Part shown: positions 532-23,616 of the stretch, in pieces
How positions within the stretch are numbered: position 1 is the stretch's first letter
How the letters are laid out: the number at the start of each line of letters is the position of its first letter
Source of the DNA: Armatimonadota bacterium
GTDB taxonomy: Bacteria; Sysuimicrobiota; Sysuimicrobiia; Sysuimicrobiales; Humicultoraceae
Direction of reading: 5' to 3'
DNA: 27,300 bases
NCBI GenBank assembly: GCA_037446215.1
Contig: JBBIJB010000029.1
Coordinates: forward strand, 1-27,300
Position numbers and translations under genes: made by a program
The notes under the pieces: generated by a model
What the model was told of the DNA's origin: nothing
What the model saw: only the letters and a program-made list of their open reading frames with translations
Databases searched by the model: none

Positions 532-557
532 GACTAGACCTCGTCTTAGGTGGGCAA
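532..557 (+). promoter_or_regulatory. Putative SigB-type promoter, copy 1 (GACTAG-N14-GGGCAA)
   Basis: Same bipartite motif and 14-nt spacer as copies at 16884, 21093, 22102 and 23591. Lies upstream of ORF 605..877. Confidence 0.5.
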
Positions 558-604
558 GACCCTCATGAGGCGCGCTGCACCTACCCTTTGCCGGAGGGTG
601 TGCC

Positions 605-877
605 ATGGCTGATCAGGAGTCGACAGATGTTGCACGGGTGTTGGCTGCGCTCTACGAGGCCAAGGCCTGGTTTCGCCACGGCATCTCGGACGGCAGGCTG
701 GCCGAGCTCACGGGCCTTCCCATGGTCCGCGTGGTCGGCGCCCGCGTGAGGGCGGAGGCGGAGGGGCTGGTCGAGAGGCAGGGCGTAGGCACGAAGGACT
801 GCGTGACCCTCCTGACCCCGGCGGGCGTCGCTAAGGCGCAGGCCGCCGCCTCGGGCGAGCAGGCACCGTCTGGTTGA
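605..877 (+). CDS. Small winged-helix-like protein (putative DNA-binding)
   Basis: GGAGGG RBS upstream. The pattern ISDGRLAELTGLPMVRVV...EAEGLVER...TLLTPAG resembles MarR/wHTH proteins. Confidence 0.6.
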   Translation: MADQESTDVARVLAALYEAKAWFRHGISDGRLAELTGLPMVRVVGARVRAEAEGLVERQGVGTKDCVTLLTPAGVAKAQAAASGEQAPSG

Positions 878-903
878 GGCCGCCGGAACCGCTGTGCTAC
901 AAT
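874..903 (+). promoter_or_regulatory. Sigma70-type promoter of tRNA-His
   Basis: TTGAGG-N18-TACAAT with an extended -10 TG at 895-896, about 10 nt before the tRNA. Confidence 0.55.
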
Positions 904-913
904 CAGCGGGCGC

Positions 914-992
914 GGTGGCCGTAGCTCAGCCTGGTTAGAGCGCCTGGCTGTGGCCCAGGAGGTCGCGGGTTCGAATCCCGTCGGTCACCCCA
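914..992 (+). tRNA. tRNA-His (GTG)
   Basis: Acceptor stem GTGGCCG/CGGTCAC with encoded G-1 and C discriminator, D arm AGCTCAGCCTGGTTAGAGC, anticodon arm CCTGG-CTGTGGC-CCAGG, T loop GGTTCGAATCC, encoded CCA. Confidence 0.96.
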
Positions 993-1016
993 GCAGCCCA
1001 ACAAGGCATAAAGAGA

Positions 1017-1044
1017 GGAGCCCGGGCCGACCGGCCCGGGCTCC
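1017..1044 (-). terminator. Intrinsic terminator hairpin downstream of groEL (possibly bidirectional)
   Basis: Inverted repeat GGAGCCCGGGCCG/CGGCCCGGGCTCC, followed on the minus strand by TCTCTTTAT. Confidence 0.7.
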
Positions 1045-1062
1045 CATCACATTACACCTGCT

Positions 1063-2691
1063 CTAGAACTCGTCCTCGCCCATCCCGCCGGGTCCGGGCA
1101 TCGCGGGCCCCTTCTTCTTCTCGCGCTTCTCAACCACGATCGCCTCGGTCGTGAGAAGCAGCCCGGCGACGCTCGCGGCGTTCTGGAGCGCGAGCCTCGT
1201 GACCTTCGTCGGGTCGACTATGCCGGCCTTCACCATGTCGGTGTACTCGAGGTTCGCCACGTCGTACCCGACGCCGGCCTTCTCGCGCTTGACCCGCTCG
1301 ACCACCAGCGAGCCCTCTCCGCCTGCGTTCTGCACCAGCTGACGCGTCGGCTCCTCGAGGGCACGGCGCACCAGGTTGACTCCGATCGCCTCATCGCCGT
1401 CACCCGTGACCTTCTTGAGCGCCTTCAGCGCCTGCAGGAAGGCGGTCCCGCCTCCGGGAACGATCCCCTCCTCGACGGCCGCCTTGGTGGCGTTGAGCGC
1501 GTCCTCGAAGCGGTGCTTCTTCTCCTTCATCTCGGTCTCGGTGGCGGCGCCCACCTTGATCTCGGCCACGCCTCCTCCGAGCTTCGCCAGCCGCTCCTGC
1601 AGCTTCTCGCGGTCGTAGTCGCTGGTGGTGTCCTCGATCTCCTTCTTGATCTGGGCAACCCTTCCATCGATATCCGCCTTCGACCCCTTGCCGCCGATGA
1701 TCGTGGACTCCTCCTTGGTGACCTTGACCTTGTCGGCGCGGCCCAGGAACTCCATCTCGATGCTCTCCAGCTTGACGCCGATGTCATCGGAGATGACCCG
1801 GGCACCGGTCAGGACGGCCATGTCCTGCAGCATCGCCTTGCGCCGGTCGCCGTAGCCGGGTGCCTTGACCGCGACGCTGTGCAGGACACCGCGCAGCTTG
1901 TTCACGACGAGGGTGGCGAGTGCCTCACCCTCGATGTCCTCCGATACCACCACGAGCGGCTTGCCCGTCCGGATTACCTTCTCCATCACCGGGACGATGT
2001 CGCGGGCGGCGCTGATCTTCTTCTCCGTTAGGAGGATGTAGGGCTCCTCGACGACCGCCTCCATCTTGTCCGGATCGGAGACGAAGTAGGGGGAGATGTA
2101 GCCGCGGTCGAACTGCATGCCCTCGACGACCTCGACCGTTGTCTCTATGCCCTTGCTCTCCTCGATGGTGATGACGCCGTCCTTGCCCACCTTGTCCATC
2201 GCGTCCGCGATGATCTCGCCGATCTCAGAGTCGTTCGCCGCGATCCCCGCCACGTGGGCGATGTCCTGACGGCCCTCGACCTGGATGCTTGACTCCTTGA
2301 GGGACTCCACGATCGACTCGACGGCGCGGTCGATCCCGCGCTTTATCAGCATCGGGTTCGCGCCCGCGGCCACGTTCTTCAGGCCCTCACGGACCATTGC
2401 CCACGCGAGCACGGTCGCCGTTGTCGTCCCGTCTCCGGCGGCATCGTTGGTCTTGCTGGCCACCTCCTTGACGAGCTGGACGCCCATGTTCTCGTTGGGA
2501 TCCTCCAGCTCGATCTCCTTGGCCACGGTGACGCCGTCCTTCGTTATGGTGGGAGAGCCCCACTTCTTCTCGAGAACGACGTTGCGCCCCTTGGGCCCCA
2601 GCGTGACCTTGACCGCGCTCGCCACGCGCTCAACTCCCCGCTCGAGCGCCCGCCGGGCGTTCTCGTCGTACAGCAACAGCTTTGCCGGCAT
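1063..2691 (-). CDS. groEL: Chaperonin GroEL (Cpn60)
   Basis: Motifs [61 protein letters not shown]-type tail; GGAGG RBS. Confidence 0.99.
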
Positions 2692-2716
2692 CTTTGTGTC
2701 CTCCTAGGCGTTTCTG

Positions 2717-2743
2717 CTAGCACTCTCTACGTTCAAGTGCTAA
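2717..2743 (-). promoter_or_regulatory. CIRCE operator (HrcA binding site)
   Basis: Minus strand reads TTAGCACTT-N9-GAGTGCTAG against consensus TTAGCACTC-N9-GAGTGCTAA, 25 nt upstream of the groEL start. Confidence 0.93.
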
Positions 2744-22127: not shown

Positions 22128-22144
22128 ATGAACTGACGCTAACG

Positions 22145-22173
22145 TTGCACCAATGTTCTCGATGGCCTATCAT
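22145..22173 (+). promoter_or_regulatory. Putative sigma70 promoter upstream of riboswitch 2 and the sigma gene
   Basis: TTGCAC-N17-TATCAT in an AT-rich patch. Confidence 0.55.
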
Positions 22174-22212
22174 CGGTCCATTGAGACCATAGTGAAGGAA
22201 AACAGCATAGGT

Positions 22213-22295
22213 TCCCCGAACGTGGCAAACCCATCGCGAGGTGGGGGCGCAAAGCCTCGGGACCGCGGGGGCGGTCGGCCGGGCTGCCGAAGGGA
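22213..22295 (+). ncRNA. Cyclic di-GMP-I (GEMM-I) riboswitch, copy 2
   Basis: TGGCAAACCCATC-GCGA-GGTGGGGGCGCAAAGCCTCGGG...GCCGGGCTGCCGA; P1 TCCCCG/CGAAGGGA. Confidence 0.92.
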
Positions 22296-22301
22296 GGGCT
22301 A

Positions 22302-22332
22302 GAGGCCTCTTGGGGCAGTCCCGGGAGGCTTC
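22302..22332 (+). terminator. Terminator-like hairpin (expression platform of riboswitch 2)
   Basis: GAGGCCTCTTGGG/CCCGGGAGGCTTC stem running into TTCTTCAT. Confidence 0.55.
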
Positions 22333-22359
22333 TTCATCACCAGGGGAATCGAGGCGTCT

Positions 22360-23151
22360 ATGCCGGGTGTAGGAGAGACAGGCGGTGTGCAGGTGGCCGA
22401 GCATGGCGCGGCGGCCAGGAGCGGAATCGATCTCCTCTCCGAGGAGTATGCCCGGACTCAGGACCCAGGGGTGCGAGATCGTCTTGTCGCCGAGTGCTCT
22501 CCGATGGTGAGGCGGATCGCCGCCGAGTTCACCTACTCGGGGGCTGCTCAGGAGGACCTGATGCAGGTGGGCTTCATCGGGCTGCTCAACGCGATCGCGG
22601 CCTTCGACCCCGGGCGGGGCGCCAGGTTCACGACCTACGCGGGGTACTTGGTCCGCGGCGAGATCCGCCACTACCTGCGAGACCAGAGGGACACGATAAG
22701 GAAGCCGAGATGGCTGCAGAAGCTGAACGCCAGGATCGAGGAGTCGGTAGGCCGGTACGTTAGTGAGACCGGCAAGTTTCCCGGCCTGGAGACGCTTGCC
22801 GAGGATCTGAACATAGCCGAGGAAGGGCTGCTCGAGGTCCTGCGGACGCGCGAGGTCCTCAGGACCGTCTCGCTCGAGAGCGAGGAGGACGACGGCACCC
22901 TCCGCGTCGATCGCGACCGGATAAGGCACAGGTCCCACATCAGCTTCCAGCTTCCCATAGAGGACAGGGTGATGCTGATGGAGGCGCTGGAGTCCCTGTC
23001 GGGCCTCCAGAGAAAGGTGGTCTACTACCTCTTCTTCACCGATCTGACGCAGATGGAGGCGGCGAAGAGGATCGGCATATCGCAGAAGCATGTGTCGCGC
23101 GTGCTTGCCGGGGCTCTAGCGAAGCTTCGGGGAATGATCGGCGTCTCGTAG
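22360..23151 (+). CDS. RNA polymerase sigma factor, SigB/SigF/SigG family
   Basis: EDLMQVGFIGLLNAIAAFDPGRGARFTTYA, GEIRHYLRD...IRKPRWL, region 4 LTQMEAAKRIGISQKHVSRV. Start could be GTG 22387 or 22393. Confidence 0.93.
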   Translation: MPGVGETGGVQVAEHGAAARSGIDLLSEEYARTQDPGVRDRLVAECSPMVRRIAAEFTYSGAAQEDLMQVGFIGLLNAIAAFDPGRGARFTTYAGYLVRGEIRHYLRDQRDTIRKPRWLQKLNARIEESVGRYVSETGKFPGLETLAEDLNIAEEGLLEVLRTREVLRTVSLESEEDDGTLRVDRDRIRHRSHISFQLPIEDRVMLMEALESLSGLQRKVVYYLFFTDLTQMEAAKRIGISQKHVSRVLAGALAKLRGMIGVS

Positions 23152-23180
23152 CGGGCGCCTGGGGGCGGGAGGGACTGGAG

Positions 23181-23537
23181 ATGTCTCAACTGAGGGACGT
23201 GCTCGTAGATCTCACGAAGGTGGGGGGCGTCGTTGCCGCCCTCGTTGTTGGCCGCGACGGCTTCGTGGTCGAGGGGATGACCACCGAGGAGACGGTCGAT
23301 CTGGAGGCCGTCGGCGCGATAGTCGCAAGCAACATCTCGGTCGCCGACTCGATGGGCCGCGAGATGGTGCGCGGTCCGCTCCGGAGCATGCTGCTGGAGT
23401 TCGACGACGGCCCCGTAGCTGTGGGCCCCGCGGGCGCCGACGCGATCCTGGTGGTAGTCGGCACCAAGCAGGCCAACCTCGGCCGGATACGCCTCGAGAT
23501 GCGTCGAAACGGCCAGCTGGCCGCCGCCCTCGTCTAG
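23181..23537 (+). CDS. Roadblock/LC7 (MglB-like) protein
   Basis: GVVAALVVGRDGFVVE...EAVGA...MLLEFDDG...ANLGRIRLEMRR; GGAGGG RBS. Confidence 0.9.
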   Translation: MSQLRDVLVDLTKVGGVVAALVVGRDGFVVEGMTTEETVDLEAVGAIVASNISVADSMGREMVRGPLRSMLLEFDDGPVAVGPAGADAILVVVGTKQANLGRIRLEMRRNGQLAAALV

Positions 23538-23590
23538 CACATCGGGGGGCAGCACGCGACAGCGCCAGCCGGGATCACAGCCCTCTGCGC

Positions 23591-23616
23591 GTCTAGCCGG
23601 ACGGCAGGGTGGGAAT
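23591..23616 (+). promoter_or_regulatory. Putative SigB-type promoter, copy 5 (GTCTAG-N14-GGGAAT), upstream of the pilin operon
   Basis: Matches the repeated motif; GGGAAT fits the SigB -10 consensus GGGWAW. Confidence 0.65.

Follow-up and report, generated by a model that had tools for sequence, protein, structure and literature searches.

A conserved motif, probably a SigB-type promoter, ahead of c-di-GMP and type IV pilus genes of Sysuimicrobiota, and the sigma factor predicted to read it

Five copies of a two-box sequence, a G[AT]CTAG hexamer followed after 14 nt by GGGNA, occur in a 27,300-nt stretch of Sysuimicrobiota DNA (the window, Table 1) that also encodes a sigma factor. The question is whether these copies are promoters and whether this sigma factor reads them. 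A sequence-only reading had proposed a lineage-specific SigB-type promoter, recognised by the 22360..23151 sigma through a CTAG-core -35 box. All five copies were found, with spacers of exactly 14 nt and a gene downstream of each. The window contains seven plus-strand G[AT]CTAG hexamers (532, 3874, 16884, 21093, 22102, 23532 and 23591), of which five carry the second box, and five minus-strand ones (539, 11383, 14938, 26700 and 27274), of which none does; this census had been offered as possibly incomplete and proved complete. The mean of 100 dinucleotide shuffles was 0.10 matches (largest count 1) against the five present. The CTAG core did not hold up, as orthologous sites read GTCTGA, GACTGA, GTCTAA and GCCTAG; judged from these sequences, the conserved motif is G-N-C-T(A)-N14-GGG[CTA]A. 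Transcription, expected in that reading to start 6–8 nt past the GGGNA box, is predicted to start 11–12 nt past the conserved A instead. The repeat is a genuine sequence signal and is conserved. Our main reading, to which we assign a probability of roughly 0.7 on sequence grounds, is that the motif is the promoter of a SigB-like sigma with a pilus, c-di-GMP and surface-sugar regulon, Lys-C recognition and riboswitch gating.

Table 1. Predicted promoters, riboswitch elements and genes of the window discussed in the text.
Feature	Position	Strand	Details
Promoter 1, predicted	532..557	+	GACTAG-14-GGGCAA; +1 predicted 567-568
Winged-helix-like protein, 90 aa, predicted target	605..877	+	homologues in 19/24 genomes of family
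Promoter 2, predicted	16884..16909	+	GACTAG-14-GGGCAC; +1 predicted 16919-16920
Membrane/GAF/HD-GYP protein	16972..18612	+	PF13487, PF13185
Degenerate GGDEF protein with RxxD site	18616..19596	-	PF00990
SigH-like promoter match	19663..19687	+	AGGA-17-GAAT; precedes first Roadblock gene
Roadblock/LC7-like protein 1	19711..20070	+	PF03259 below cut-off, E 0.002
TPR + lytic transglycosylase	20067..21062	+	PF01464, PF14559
Promoter 3, predicted	21093..21118	+	GACTAG-14-GGGTAG; +1 predicted 21128-21129
c-di-GMP-I riboswitch aptamer 1	21153..21245	+	RF01051, 52.8 bits, above cut-off of 35
14-bp hairpin past aptamer 1, predicted terminator	21253..21283	+	folding prediction
Protein with C-terminal winged-helix-like region, function unassigned	21323..22081	+	PF16221 below cut-off
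Promoter 4, predicted	22102..22127	+	GTCTAG-14-GGGTAC; +1 predicted 22137-22138
Housekeeping-type promoter match	22145..22173	+	TTGCAC-17-TATCAT; between promoter 4 and riboswitch
c-di-GMP-I riboswitch aptamer 2	22215..22292	+	RF03167, 59.6 bits, above cut-off of 59
14-bp hairpin with U-rich tail, predicted terminator	22301..22333	+	loop side complementary to aptamer 2 3' strand
SigB/F/G-like sigma factor, 263 aa	22360..23151	+	PF04542, PF04545
Roadblock/LC7 protein 2	23181..23537	+	PF03259
Promoter 5, predicted	23591..23616	+	GTCTAG-14-GGGAAT; +1 predicted 23626-23627
Four minor type IV pilin-like genes	23710-24150, 24140-24739, 24754-26844, 26841-27272	+	PF07963, PF16241

The earlier reading had called for a genome-wide scan, and this bore it out: spacer 14 was enriched over other spacers, in intergenic sense-strand positions. 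In the genome (2.16 Mb, 91% complete, 68% G+C) the strict motif occurred 11 times at spacer 14 and 0–5 times at each of 18 other spacers (6–24); with the window left out, six sites remained, compared with a mean of 2.1 (Poisson p 0.019), five of the 11 sites being clustered around the sigma gene. The core G[AT]CT-N16-GGG[ACT]A was upstream-intergenic in 17/80 cases versus 32/505 at other gaps, and in 12/75 once the window was excluded (p 0.008). A matrix built from relatives gave 12 top sites, all outside genes, and for 11 of them a gene on the same strand starts within 350 nt (other spacers, 0–3 of 2–7); these figures and the counts of letters per box position are partly circular, the training sites having been chosen by a pattern. 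Spacer 14 was compared with spacers 16–19 in 93 relatives. The family of this genome (f1) had 571 matches against 107.5 per spacer (about 5-fold; 33 genomes, each at least 2-fold), and two other families showed 3- to 5-fold enrichment (f2, 272 against 85.8; f4, 414 against 75.5). The enrichment was only 1.4-fold in f7 and 1.3-fold in family f5, despite the presence of the sigma in f5; three f5 genomes nevertheless retain the site at their pilin genes. Chance, combined with TAG stop codons and G-rich ribosome sites lying between genes, is scarcely credible as the source of this pattern. A stop codon does lie inside the site at 16884 (promoter 2 overlaps that of the upstream gene yqeG, 16887-16889), GGG is common at this G+C content, and a backwards-pattern control outnumbered the pattern in most genomes (22 versus 11 here); against this stand the sharp single-spacer peak in 78 genomes of three families and the conservation of both boxes, with a freely varying spacer sequence, at orthologous places. 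The spacer controls had already largely refuted this reading.

The five sites were retained to different extents. Promoter 1 kept G[AT]CT at spacer 14 in 7/18 homologous loci, several others reading GCCTA or GGCTA. The core pattern of promoter 2 was present in 9 of 17 yqeG-anchored regions, all eight misses being from outside the family, and promoter 3 in 15 of 30 SLT-anchored regions, with five further sites just beyond the scanned stretch. Promoter 5 was found in 5/7 relatives' loci that have the pilin operon next, and promoter 4 in 10/12 anchored regions. Since promoter 4 precedes the sigma gene, that gene would be autoregulated; the self-promoter was seen in 9 of 26 relatives' sigma leaders, was missing in 17, and was found in none of the six from the same genus. 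The same boxes could in principle be half-sites, two helical turns apart, of an operator bound by a regulator such as the winged-helix product of the 605 or 21323 gene or the MerR-like protein of the pilB operon. CTAG is palindromic, two helix-turn-helix-like proteins are among the predicted targets and a MerR-family gene heads the pilB operon; yet the boxes differ from each other, are always oriented to a gene and coincide exactly with positions -35 and -15..-11 of SigB promoters. Conservation does not extend to CTAG itself, and enrichment of the motif is seen in f2 and f4 too, whereas the 605 gene was found in f1 only. We regard an operator as very improbable.

The motif is very probably the promoter of the clade to which the window's sigma belongs, as judged from promoter geometry, spacer-14 enrichment and orthologous conservation. 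The best solved relative of this sigma is S. aureus SigB (8x6g_H), and through this match the DNA contacts described in PMC11156646 (in part) were transferred to it. Both are group 3 sigma factors, and the SigB promoters of S. aureus and B. subtilis (8X6G; PMC11156646, in part; B. subtilis consensus as quoted in an excerpt of PMC8346170) share with the local motif the -35 G, the 14-nt spacer and GGG-x-A at -15..-11. Equivalents of S. aureus S235, Q236, R241, R100 and R110 are kept in regions 2 and 4 (S241, Q242, R247, R107 and R117), the third arginine being replaced by His; the DNA-facing R74, F79, R97 and R244 differ. The sigma nevertheless scored below the family cut-offs, with 173.7 bits for TIGR02980 (SigB/SigF/SigG; cut-off 234.35) and also under that of TIGR02941; two orthologues gave 178.3 and 180.9 bits, against 259.7–275.8 for four canonical paralogues. 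Its genome contains nine sigma region-2 matches and is incomplete, and several relatives carry one or two extra Lys-type paralogues (50–59% identity). The motif might therefore belong to another sigma: a SigH orthologue, a FliA/WhiG-like or RpoS/RpoH-like protein (contigs C36 and C62), or a SigB-like gene that the assembly does not include. We consider this quite improbable, because the SigB-type arginines of region 2/3 and the helix occur in no sigma other than the window's (no second SigB/F/G-like sigma was found in the genome), SigH has an abundant motif of its own, and the 22360..23151 gene is linked to a pilB-pilT-pilC-pilA cluster across the order. A FliA/WhiG (sigma-28) assignment was not borne out either (TIGR02479, 93.8 bits versus 189.6), the local motif being unlike TAAA/GCCGATAA.

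The main departure from SigB concerns one residue and one base. The recognition helix reads S241-Q242-K243...R247 (K243 codon, 23086-23088); of the four residues that read the -35 box in the S. aureus SigB structure, three are kept, and the fourth, Met237, which reads -33, is Lys/Arg. The base at -33 is the one changed from T to C; the local -34 and -12 are looser. In 24/24 aligned orthologues S, Q, H, V, S and R of the helix are invariant and Lys is nearly so, being otherwise Arg; Met occupied the -33-reading position in none of the orthologues read. By analogy with the S. aureus structure, R247 would read the -35 G, S241 -34 and Q242 -32, while R107, R117 and H104 would read GGG. K243 would read the G opposite the -33 C, hence GTCT/GACT in place of GTTT. 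Canonical SigB genes in relatives served as a control within the lineage. Of 15 such loci, 13 encode Met, and the four sigmas tested all exceeded the TIGR02980 cut-off; the loci have RsbW-, STAS- and CsbD-like neighbours, and CsbD- and DUF892-like genes occur there. Their GTTT sites number 5/16/6 at spacers 13/14/15, and G[AT]CTA is absent at spacer 14, whereas 50 Lys/Arg sigma loci have 61 G[AT]CTA at spacer 14 (0–4 at other spacers) and only two GTTT.

It could be argued that this sigma does use the motif but reads its -35 box loosely, the C at -33 reflecting history or high G+C rather than K243, with no insulation from SigB. Nine SigB homologues of S. coelicolor cross-recognise promoters with GNNT -35 boxes (PMC8346170, in part), so that canonical SigB might still accept C at -33; in the local sites -34 and -30 vary. 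The Lys/Arg sigmas analysed here all fall into a single clade, so that the residue-base match counts as one evolutionary event and provides no independent replicates. We nevertheless think loose reading unlikely. G[AT]TT, G[AT]GT and G[AT]AT were not enriched at the spacer that enriches G[AT]CT (in this genome, upstream-intergenic GTTT 0/3 and G[AT]TT 0/6), and canonical loci keep GTTT although their genomes, from the same order, are just as G+C-rich. Moreover, Met237 of S. aureus SigB touches the -33 base pair, and its alanine mutant and a -33 mutation both impair transcription (PMC11156646, in part). By this analogy, Lys/Arg at the Met237 place probably sets the C, and the swap would insulate the pilus regulon from the canonical stress SigB present separately in some relatives. 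If true, it would explain how SigB-like paralogues escape the cross-talk seen in Streptomyces and would provide an orthogonal sigma-promoter pair, a natural example of the sigma-4 recognition code in which a single residue corresponds to a single base and canonical SigB of the same lineage serves as control.

The predicted targets are pilins, pilus ATPases, HD-GYP and sugar-nucleotide genes, and general stress genes are not among them; the protein appears to be a distinct pilus/c-di-GMP sigma and not a general-stress SigB. The 12 top matrix sites head pilin, minor-pilin, HD-GYP and sigma genes. As predicted promoters, the motif copies precede the major pilin and minor pilin operons and head 6 of the 10 pilus transcription units of this genome; no site was found at the units on contigs C69 (with pilM and pilN), C20 and C96. 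In a near-complete relative (G014) 21 of 30 matches are intergenic, heading pilins, the sigma, a paralogous sigma, two HD-GYP genes and UDP-glucose dehydrogenase. A site at mraZ may be conserved for other reasons, since it overlaps a SigH-like promoter and GTGGG repeats. In Sysuimicrobiota the sigma is predicted to activate genes for type IV pili, c-di-GMP turnover and surface sugars. For a phylum without a cultured member, this would be the first promoter consensus of practical use, and the first predicted regulon, for the control of pili.

No STAS match was found in this genome, and 25 of 40 relatives, G014 (4 contigs) and G028 among them, had none either; HATPase_c_2 matches in this genome lie only in frames of 370–680 aa. 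No RsbV or RsbW gene was noted beside the sigma in the mapped loci, where its neighbours are pilus and Roadblock genes. Lacking the RsbV/RsbW switch of SigB, the sigma would have its amount set at its own gene. Expression would start from a housekeeping-type promoter, matches to which occur in relatives too, and in this genome also from its own promoter (positive feedback). An aptamer precedes the sigma gene in 27/30 loci, and the predicted +1 falls 18–106 nt upstream of the aptamer core in 36/36 cases. Both aptamers of the window belong to Rfam clan CL00126. Aptamer 2 scores best with the GGC variant model; its ligand-facing positions read G, A and C, which, with the roles we assume for these three positions, we take to be the standard class. 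The loop side of the 22301..22333 hairpin pairs with the aptamer 3' strand (predicted anti-terminator), and therefore an OFF switch is predicted; on this folding model, the sigma-leader riboswitch quite probably terminates transcription at high c-di-GMP. The HD-GYP phosphodiesterase of the regulon would then lower c-di-GMP and reinforce the ON state.

Three known systems resemble parts of this arrangement. Cyanobacterial SigF (Synechocystis PCC 6803, PMC2532724) and SigJ/SigF (Nostoc punctiforme, PMC6495340) are, in the sections drawn on, SigB-related, tied to type IV pili and associated with a GGG-led -10 region, and Synechocystis SigF shares autoregulation with the predicted local self-promoter. 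The corresponding model PRK07408 was the second-best family match of the sigma, below its cut-off (150.8 bits versus 261), in an analysis whose sigma tree had no named cyanobacterial sequence. The local -35 box is sharp and its spacer fixed at 14 nt, whereas SigJ has a weak -35 and SigF a -32 box TAGGC; riboswitch gating, predicted here, is not mentioned in the same sections of the two papers. RsiG-(c-di-GMP)-WhiG of Rubrobacter (PMC8325347, PMC13595943, both in part) is likewise a c-di-GMP-controlled sigma with a predicted regulon of pili and c-di-GMP enzymes, but it is FliA-type, anti-sigma-held and uses TAAA/GCCGATAA promoters (PMC8325347), whereas the local sigma is SigB-type with predicted RNA-level control. 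In Clostridioides difficile (PMC6366702, in part) a class I c-di-GMP OFF riboswitch, Cd1, limits the motility sigma SigD through the flgB operon, a control resembling the one predicted locally; SigD, however, is a flagellar sigma encoded far inside an operon of 23 kb, and c-di-GMP turns pili ON in that species, whereas here the riboswitch immediately precedes a pilus sigma and is predicted to turn pili OFF. It would be a third c-di-GMP route to a surface-motility sigma, after anti-sigma binding and operon-level riboswitches. At somewhat less than even odds, we tentatively propose an undescribed pilus-sigma branch of SigB, made orthogonal by the change from Met-T to Lys/Arg-C at -33, such that one cell could operate two SigB-like programmes in parallel and free of cross-talk. 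C-di-GMP would be wired in twice: through the riboswitch on the sigma mRNA in Sysuimicrobiota and, in close relatives of the branch, through a fused, catalytically dead GGDEF with an invariant RxxD. These fused relatives sit at the end of pilB-pilT-pilC operons.

Several other genes of the window bear on c-di-GMP. The start of the HD-GYP gene was shifted from 16897 to 16972, which is also given by the gene caller, because the predicted +1 lies past 16897 and a ribosome site precedes 16972; HD and GYP motifs are present in its relatives, and the product is likely a c-di-GMP phosphodiesterase. In the 18616..19596 GGDEF protein RxxD is invariant in 15/15 aligned orthologues and the catalytic motif is lost, making it a likely c-di-GMP receptor; no copy of the motif was seen upstream of its gene. 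The 19663..19687 match was identified with what we take to be the SigH consensus. The 605..877 protein has no Pfam match, and its atlas look-alikes are HTH proteins at 0.95, which provides a lead. The 21323..22081 protein is longer in relatives, where additional genes lie ahead of it, and the minor pilin-like genes of 23710..27272 gave weak GspI/ComGE and GspH-type matches.

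The five copies of G[AT]CTAG-N14-GGGNA were confirmed exactly as the sequence-only reading had listed them, all with 14-nt spacers, and its count by eye turned out to be complete: GGGNA follows at 14 nt in 5 of the 7 plus-strand G[AT]CTAG hexamers and in none of the 5 on the minus strand. Over 100 shuffles of the window, chance matches averaged 0.10 with a maximum of 1. Across the genome as a whole (G000; 2.16 Mb, 68% G+C, completeness 91%), spacer 14 yields 11 matches to the pattern and each of 18 alternative spacers 0–5; without the window, the numbers are 6 versus a mean of 2.1 (p 0.019). 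The pattern written backwards is more frequent than the pattern itself (22 versus 11 in G000), which we keep as a point against the motif. Reversal abolishes CTAG, which is depleted more than any other 4-mer in G000 (observed/expected 0.38), and this would account for the excess; the backwards control was thus judged not comparable, and spacer controls were used in its place.

The expected genome-wide enrichment at spacer 14 was borne out in G000 and in relatives from the host's own family (f1) and families f2 and f4. For the original pattern in 40 relatives, counts at spacer 14 versus the mean of eight other spacers were 228 versus 36.8 per spacer in f1 (24 genomes), 32 versus 9.8 in f2, 31 versus 6.4 in f4 and 5 versus 6.0 in f5. 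A wider pattern, GNCTAR-N14-GGG[ACT]A, was set against spacers 16–19 in 93 relatives. The enrichment at spacer 14 was 5.3-fold in f1 (at least 2-fold in 33/33 genomes), 3.2-fold in f2 (18/22), 5.5-fold in f4 (22/23), 1.3-fold in f5 (2/12), 1.4-fold in f7 and below 1 in f3 and f6 (one genome each); these fold figures are descriptions rather than tests, since kin are not independent. The named relatives are Fervidifonticultor, Geohabitans and CSP1-3 records, i.e. Sysuimicrobiota (PMC11604079). The idea that genus g19 (recognition helix SQRR/SQRQ) is devoid of the motif was rejected, as GTCTAA-14-GGG[TC]A is retained at its pilin genes.

Orthologous positions were compared in anchored regions of the relatives. 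Site 22102 was kept in 10/12 regions, site 21093 in 15/30 (10 misses are other families with a different gene order; in 5 the site lies just beyond the scanned stretch) and site 16884 in 9/17, with readings GTCTGA, GACTGA, GTCTGG and GTCTGC; its misses are all outside f1, and two have a 15-nt spacer. Site 23591 was kept in 11/40 regions overall and in 5/7 where the pilin operon follows. A strict match to site 532 was present in 7/18, and by eye several others show GCCTA or GGCTA with an unchanged spacer. The proposed CTAG core of the −35 box was therefore not upheld: the orthologous sites keep G-N-C-T, usually followed by A. Among 82 sites the only preference within the spacer is for T at −16; 12 nt downstream of the conserved A, purines are favoured. 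In 36/36 cases the predicted start falls 18–106 nt upstream of the aptamer core and never within it, in a search that permitted distances down to about −10. Overall, the motif is real and conserved, and is very probably a promoter of the clade to which the window's sigma factor belongs.

Coordinates of features in the window and on other contigs of G000
Feature	Sequence	Position	Strand
Motif site	window	532	+
Motif site	window	16884	+
Motif site	window	21093	+
Motif site	window	22102	+
Motif site	window	23591	+
tRNA gene	window	915-989	
ABC peptide-binding gene, split	window	8124-9759	
SigH-like promoter, ahead of first Roadblock gene	window	19663-19687	
c-di-GMP-I riboswitch, first	window	21153-21245	
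Winged-helix-like gene	window	21323-22081	
c-di-GMP-I riboswitch, second	window	22215-22292	
Sigma factor gene	window	22360-23151	+
SigH (Spo0H) orthologue	C102	3186-3824	
c-di-GMP-I-like aptamer, third	C71	about 1900-2110	-

The position of the sites was assessed against 2,098 genes of G000 from a home-made caller. A matrix was built on 54 sites, all from relatives; because they were picked by a pattern it is circular as to spacer and box letters, but the circularity does not extend to where its matches fall in G000. It gave 12 matches scoring 15 bits or more at spacer 14, all outside genes; 11 of them lie at most 350 nt from a same-strand start and the remaining one is at a contig end. At other spacers only 0–3 of 2–7 matches were so placed. 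Enrichment in intergenic sense-strand positions also held for the shorter core G[AT]CT-N16-GGG[ACT]A, upstream-intergenic in 17/80 cases versus 32/505 at other gaps. Seven top sites lie outside the window: they head the major pilin (contig C120), a second pilin (C14), two minor-pilin operons (C31, C91), a UDP-glucose dehydrogenase-epimerase-glycosyltransferase operon (C72) and mraZ (C122), besides the contig end. The shorter core brings in an MshEN/PilT/PilU-type operon (C10). Thus 6/10 pilus units of G000 carry the motif; the scan of G000 found none at those on C69 (including pilM and pilN), C20 and C96, and the pilB operon has lost its front at a contig end. As a target mraZ is doubtful, its site overlapping a SigH-like promoter and GTGGG repeats, presumably MraZ boxes. 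In the relative G014, 21/30 matches were intergenic by the gene-position test, and motif-headed genes encode pilins, the sigma, a paralogous sigma, two HD-GYP proteins, UDP-glucose dehydrogenase, a response regulator, a kinase and MraZ. The pilB operon (G000 C120; loci L069 and L032) starts with a DnaB_C/AAA-like gene, preceded in relatives by a conserved motif site, and continues with MerR-family and DUF6812 genes; both PilB-like proteins there carry an MshEN c-di-GMP-binding domain.

Nine proteins of G000 match sigma region 2, including RpoD, a true SigH (TIGR02859, 349.4 over 294.8), ECF-like proteins, one FliA/WhiG-like factor and one left unassigned. The window's sigma is the only SigB/F/G-like one, at 173.7 bits under the TIGR02980 cut-off of 234.35. 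In G014 (4 contigs) and throughout the order, its gene is linked with pilB, pilT, pilC and pilA. The closest protein of solved structure is S. aureus SigB, in which R241 reads the −35 G, S235 the −34 T, M237 and Q236 contact the A opposite −33 T and −32 T, respectively, and R110, R100 and R97 read GGG (PMC11156646). By alignment, the window's sigma keeps these residues as R247, S241, Q242, R117 and R107, with K243 in place of M237 and H104 in place of R97; the equivalents of R74, F79 and R244 are also changed. The changed −35 reader, K243, is thus predicted to face the changed base (−33), and every orthologue read has Lys or Arg there. Several family members contain one or two further Lys-helix paralogues per genome (L074, L075, L090–L095; 50–59% identity), with the motif in front at L074 and L090; four stand behind an aspartokinase-like gene without it.

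Some relatives possess a second, canonical SigB, which served as an in-lineage control. It has Met in 13/15 loci (one Ile, one truncated), exceeds the TIGR02980 cut-off in 4/4 tested and neighbours HATPase_c_2, STAS, CsbD and DUF892 genes. In these loci (118 kb) GTTT-type sites numbered 5, 16 and 6 at spacers 13, 14 and 15, and G[AT]CTA at spacer 14 was absent. The 50 Lys/Arg loci (648 kb) contain 61 G[AT]CTA at spacer 14 versus 0–4 at others, and two GTTT. In a FastTree phylogeny that kept one in three fused rows and only rows of at least 200 aligned residues, the phylum's Lys/Arg sigmas form a single group with support 94 and the canonical ones a separate group with support 100, so the residue–base pairing counts as one contrast, not many.

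The search turned up no STAS protein in G000 (91% complete) or in 25/40 relatives, and the HATPase_c_2 matches of G000 sit in long, kinase-sized frames. Two c-di-GMP-I riboswitches lie directly downstream of sites 21093 and 22102, and a riboswitch precedes the sigma gene in 27/30 loci. In most f1 loci, the loop side of the hairpin that follows is complementary to the aptamer 3' strand; across all loci the duplex energies range from −7.6 to −18.7 kcal/mol. Read-through without ligand and termination with ligand are predicted from this pairing. With no STAS partner switch, the riboswitch ahead of the sigma gene would take over control. A GGC-variant riboswitch had the best Rfam score, but was rejected because, in the leaders read, the positions that face the ligand carry the standard bases. 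At L008 and L012 (genomes G003 and G004) the aptamer of the sigma leader starts AGCAAA, not GGCAAA; A at this position is the change linked to c-AMP-GMP sensing, so a switch of ligand inside this genus is possible.

Upstream of the riboswitch, the motif was present in 10 sigma leaders (G000 included); among the others, 7 have a housekeeping-type match alone, 7 a SigH-like one alone, 2 both and 1 neither. All six same-genus relatives were without the motif there. Autoregulation is thus predicted for G000 and several genera, not for the whole lineage. AGGA-N17/18-GAAT, which we take to be the SigH consensus, was upstream-intergenic in G000 in 19/29 and 23/33 cases versus 0–6 of 12–33 at other gaps, and heads, among others, the first Roadblock gene and, by eye, ftsA-, mraZ- and thioredoxin-like genes. 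In several genera the SigH-like signal, not the motif, precedes the riboswitch of the sigma, suggesting a candidate SigH-to-SigF-like cascade outside Bacillota. The third aptamer precedes a glycoside-hydrolase-like gene (by eye), with a SigH-like promoter and no motif upstream.

The motif–sigma pair resembles several known systems. It shares promoter geometry with SigB, and it would act as a pilus sigma with a GGG-led −10 in the manner of cyanobacterial SigF/SigJ (PMC2532724, PMC6495340), on pili plus c-di-GMP enzymes in the manner of Rubrobacter WhiG (PMC8325347) and under a predicted riboswitch gating similar to that of C. difficile SigD (PMC6366702); by score or defining feature the window's sigma falls outside each of these groups. 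Novelty is tempered by the −35 box, which fits the loose GNNT of Streptomyces (PMC8346170). A riboswitch-gated pilus sigma with its promoter was not found in the portions of the published literature covered, and the main texts of the phylum's two genome papers mention neither pilus, sigma nor riboswitch; their supplementary tables might list such genes.

The right third of the window encodes an HD-GYP protein, a minus-strand degenerate GGDEF protein, two Roadblock proteins, a TPR-lytic transglycosylase, the sigma and four minor pilins. Among the best 150 representatives of 50% clusters, 59 sigmas have a long C-terminal tail, 53 of which match GGDEF domains (10/11 tested by Pfam); in an alignment of 21, RxxD is invariant and the catalytic motif is lost. 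One fusion cluster carries the name Armatimonadota. In 60/80 metagenome loci (L096–L175; fusions P0122, P0128, P0129 and others) pilC is directly upstream of the fusion. The recognition helix differs (S-x-N-Y), and no −35 motif emerged for this clade in the 80 loci with a statistic that recovers GTCTA/GACTA in the control. The GGDEF protein of the window was not supported as a split-off partner of the fusions, being the best match for just 8/53 fused domains and absent from several loci. In relatives, the two ends homologous to the winged-helix-like gene at 21323 are separated by as much as about 2 kb; the far shorter copy in G000 has probably undergone an internal deletion. An atlas search with its product gave nothing above 0.84. 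Relatives have extra genes between the first riboswitch and the homologue of this gene. The ABC peptide-binding gene is split over two frames that both match PF00496 (1–163 and 169–353), by either a frameshift or an assembly error, and the tRNA gene lies between the winged-helix-like gene at 605 and groEL.
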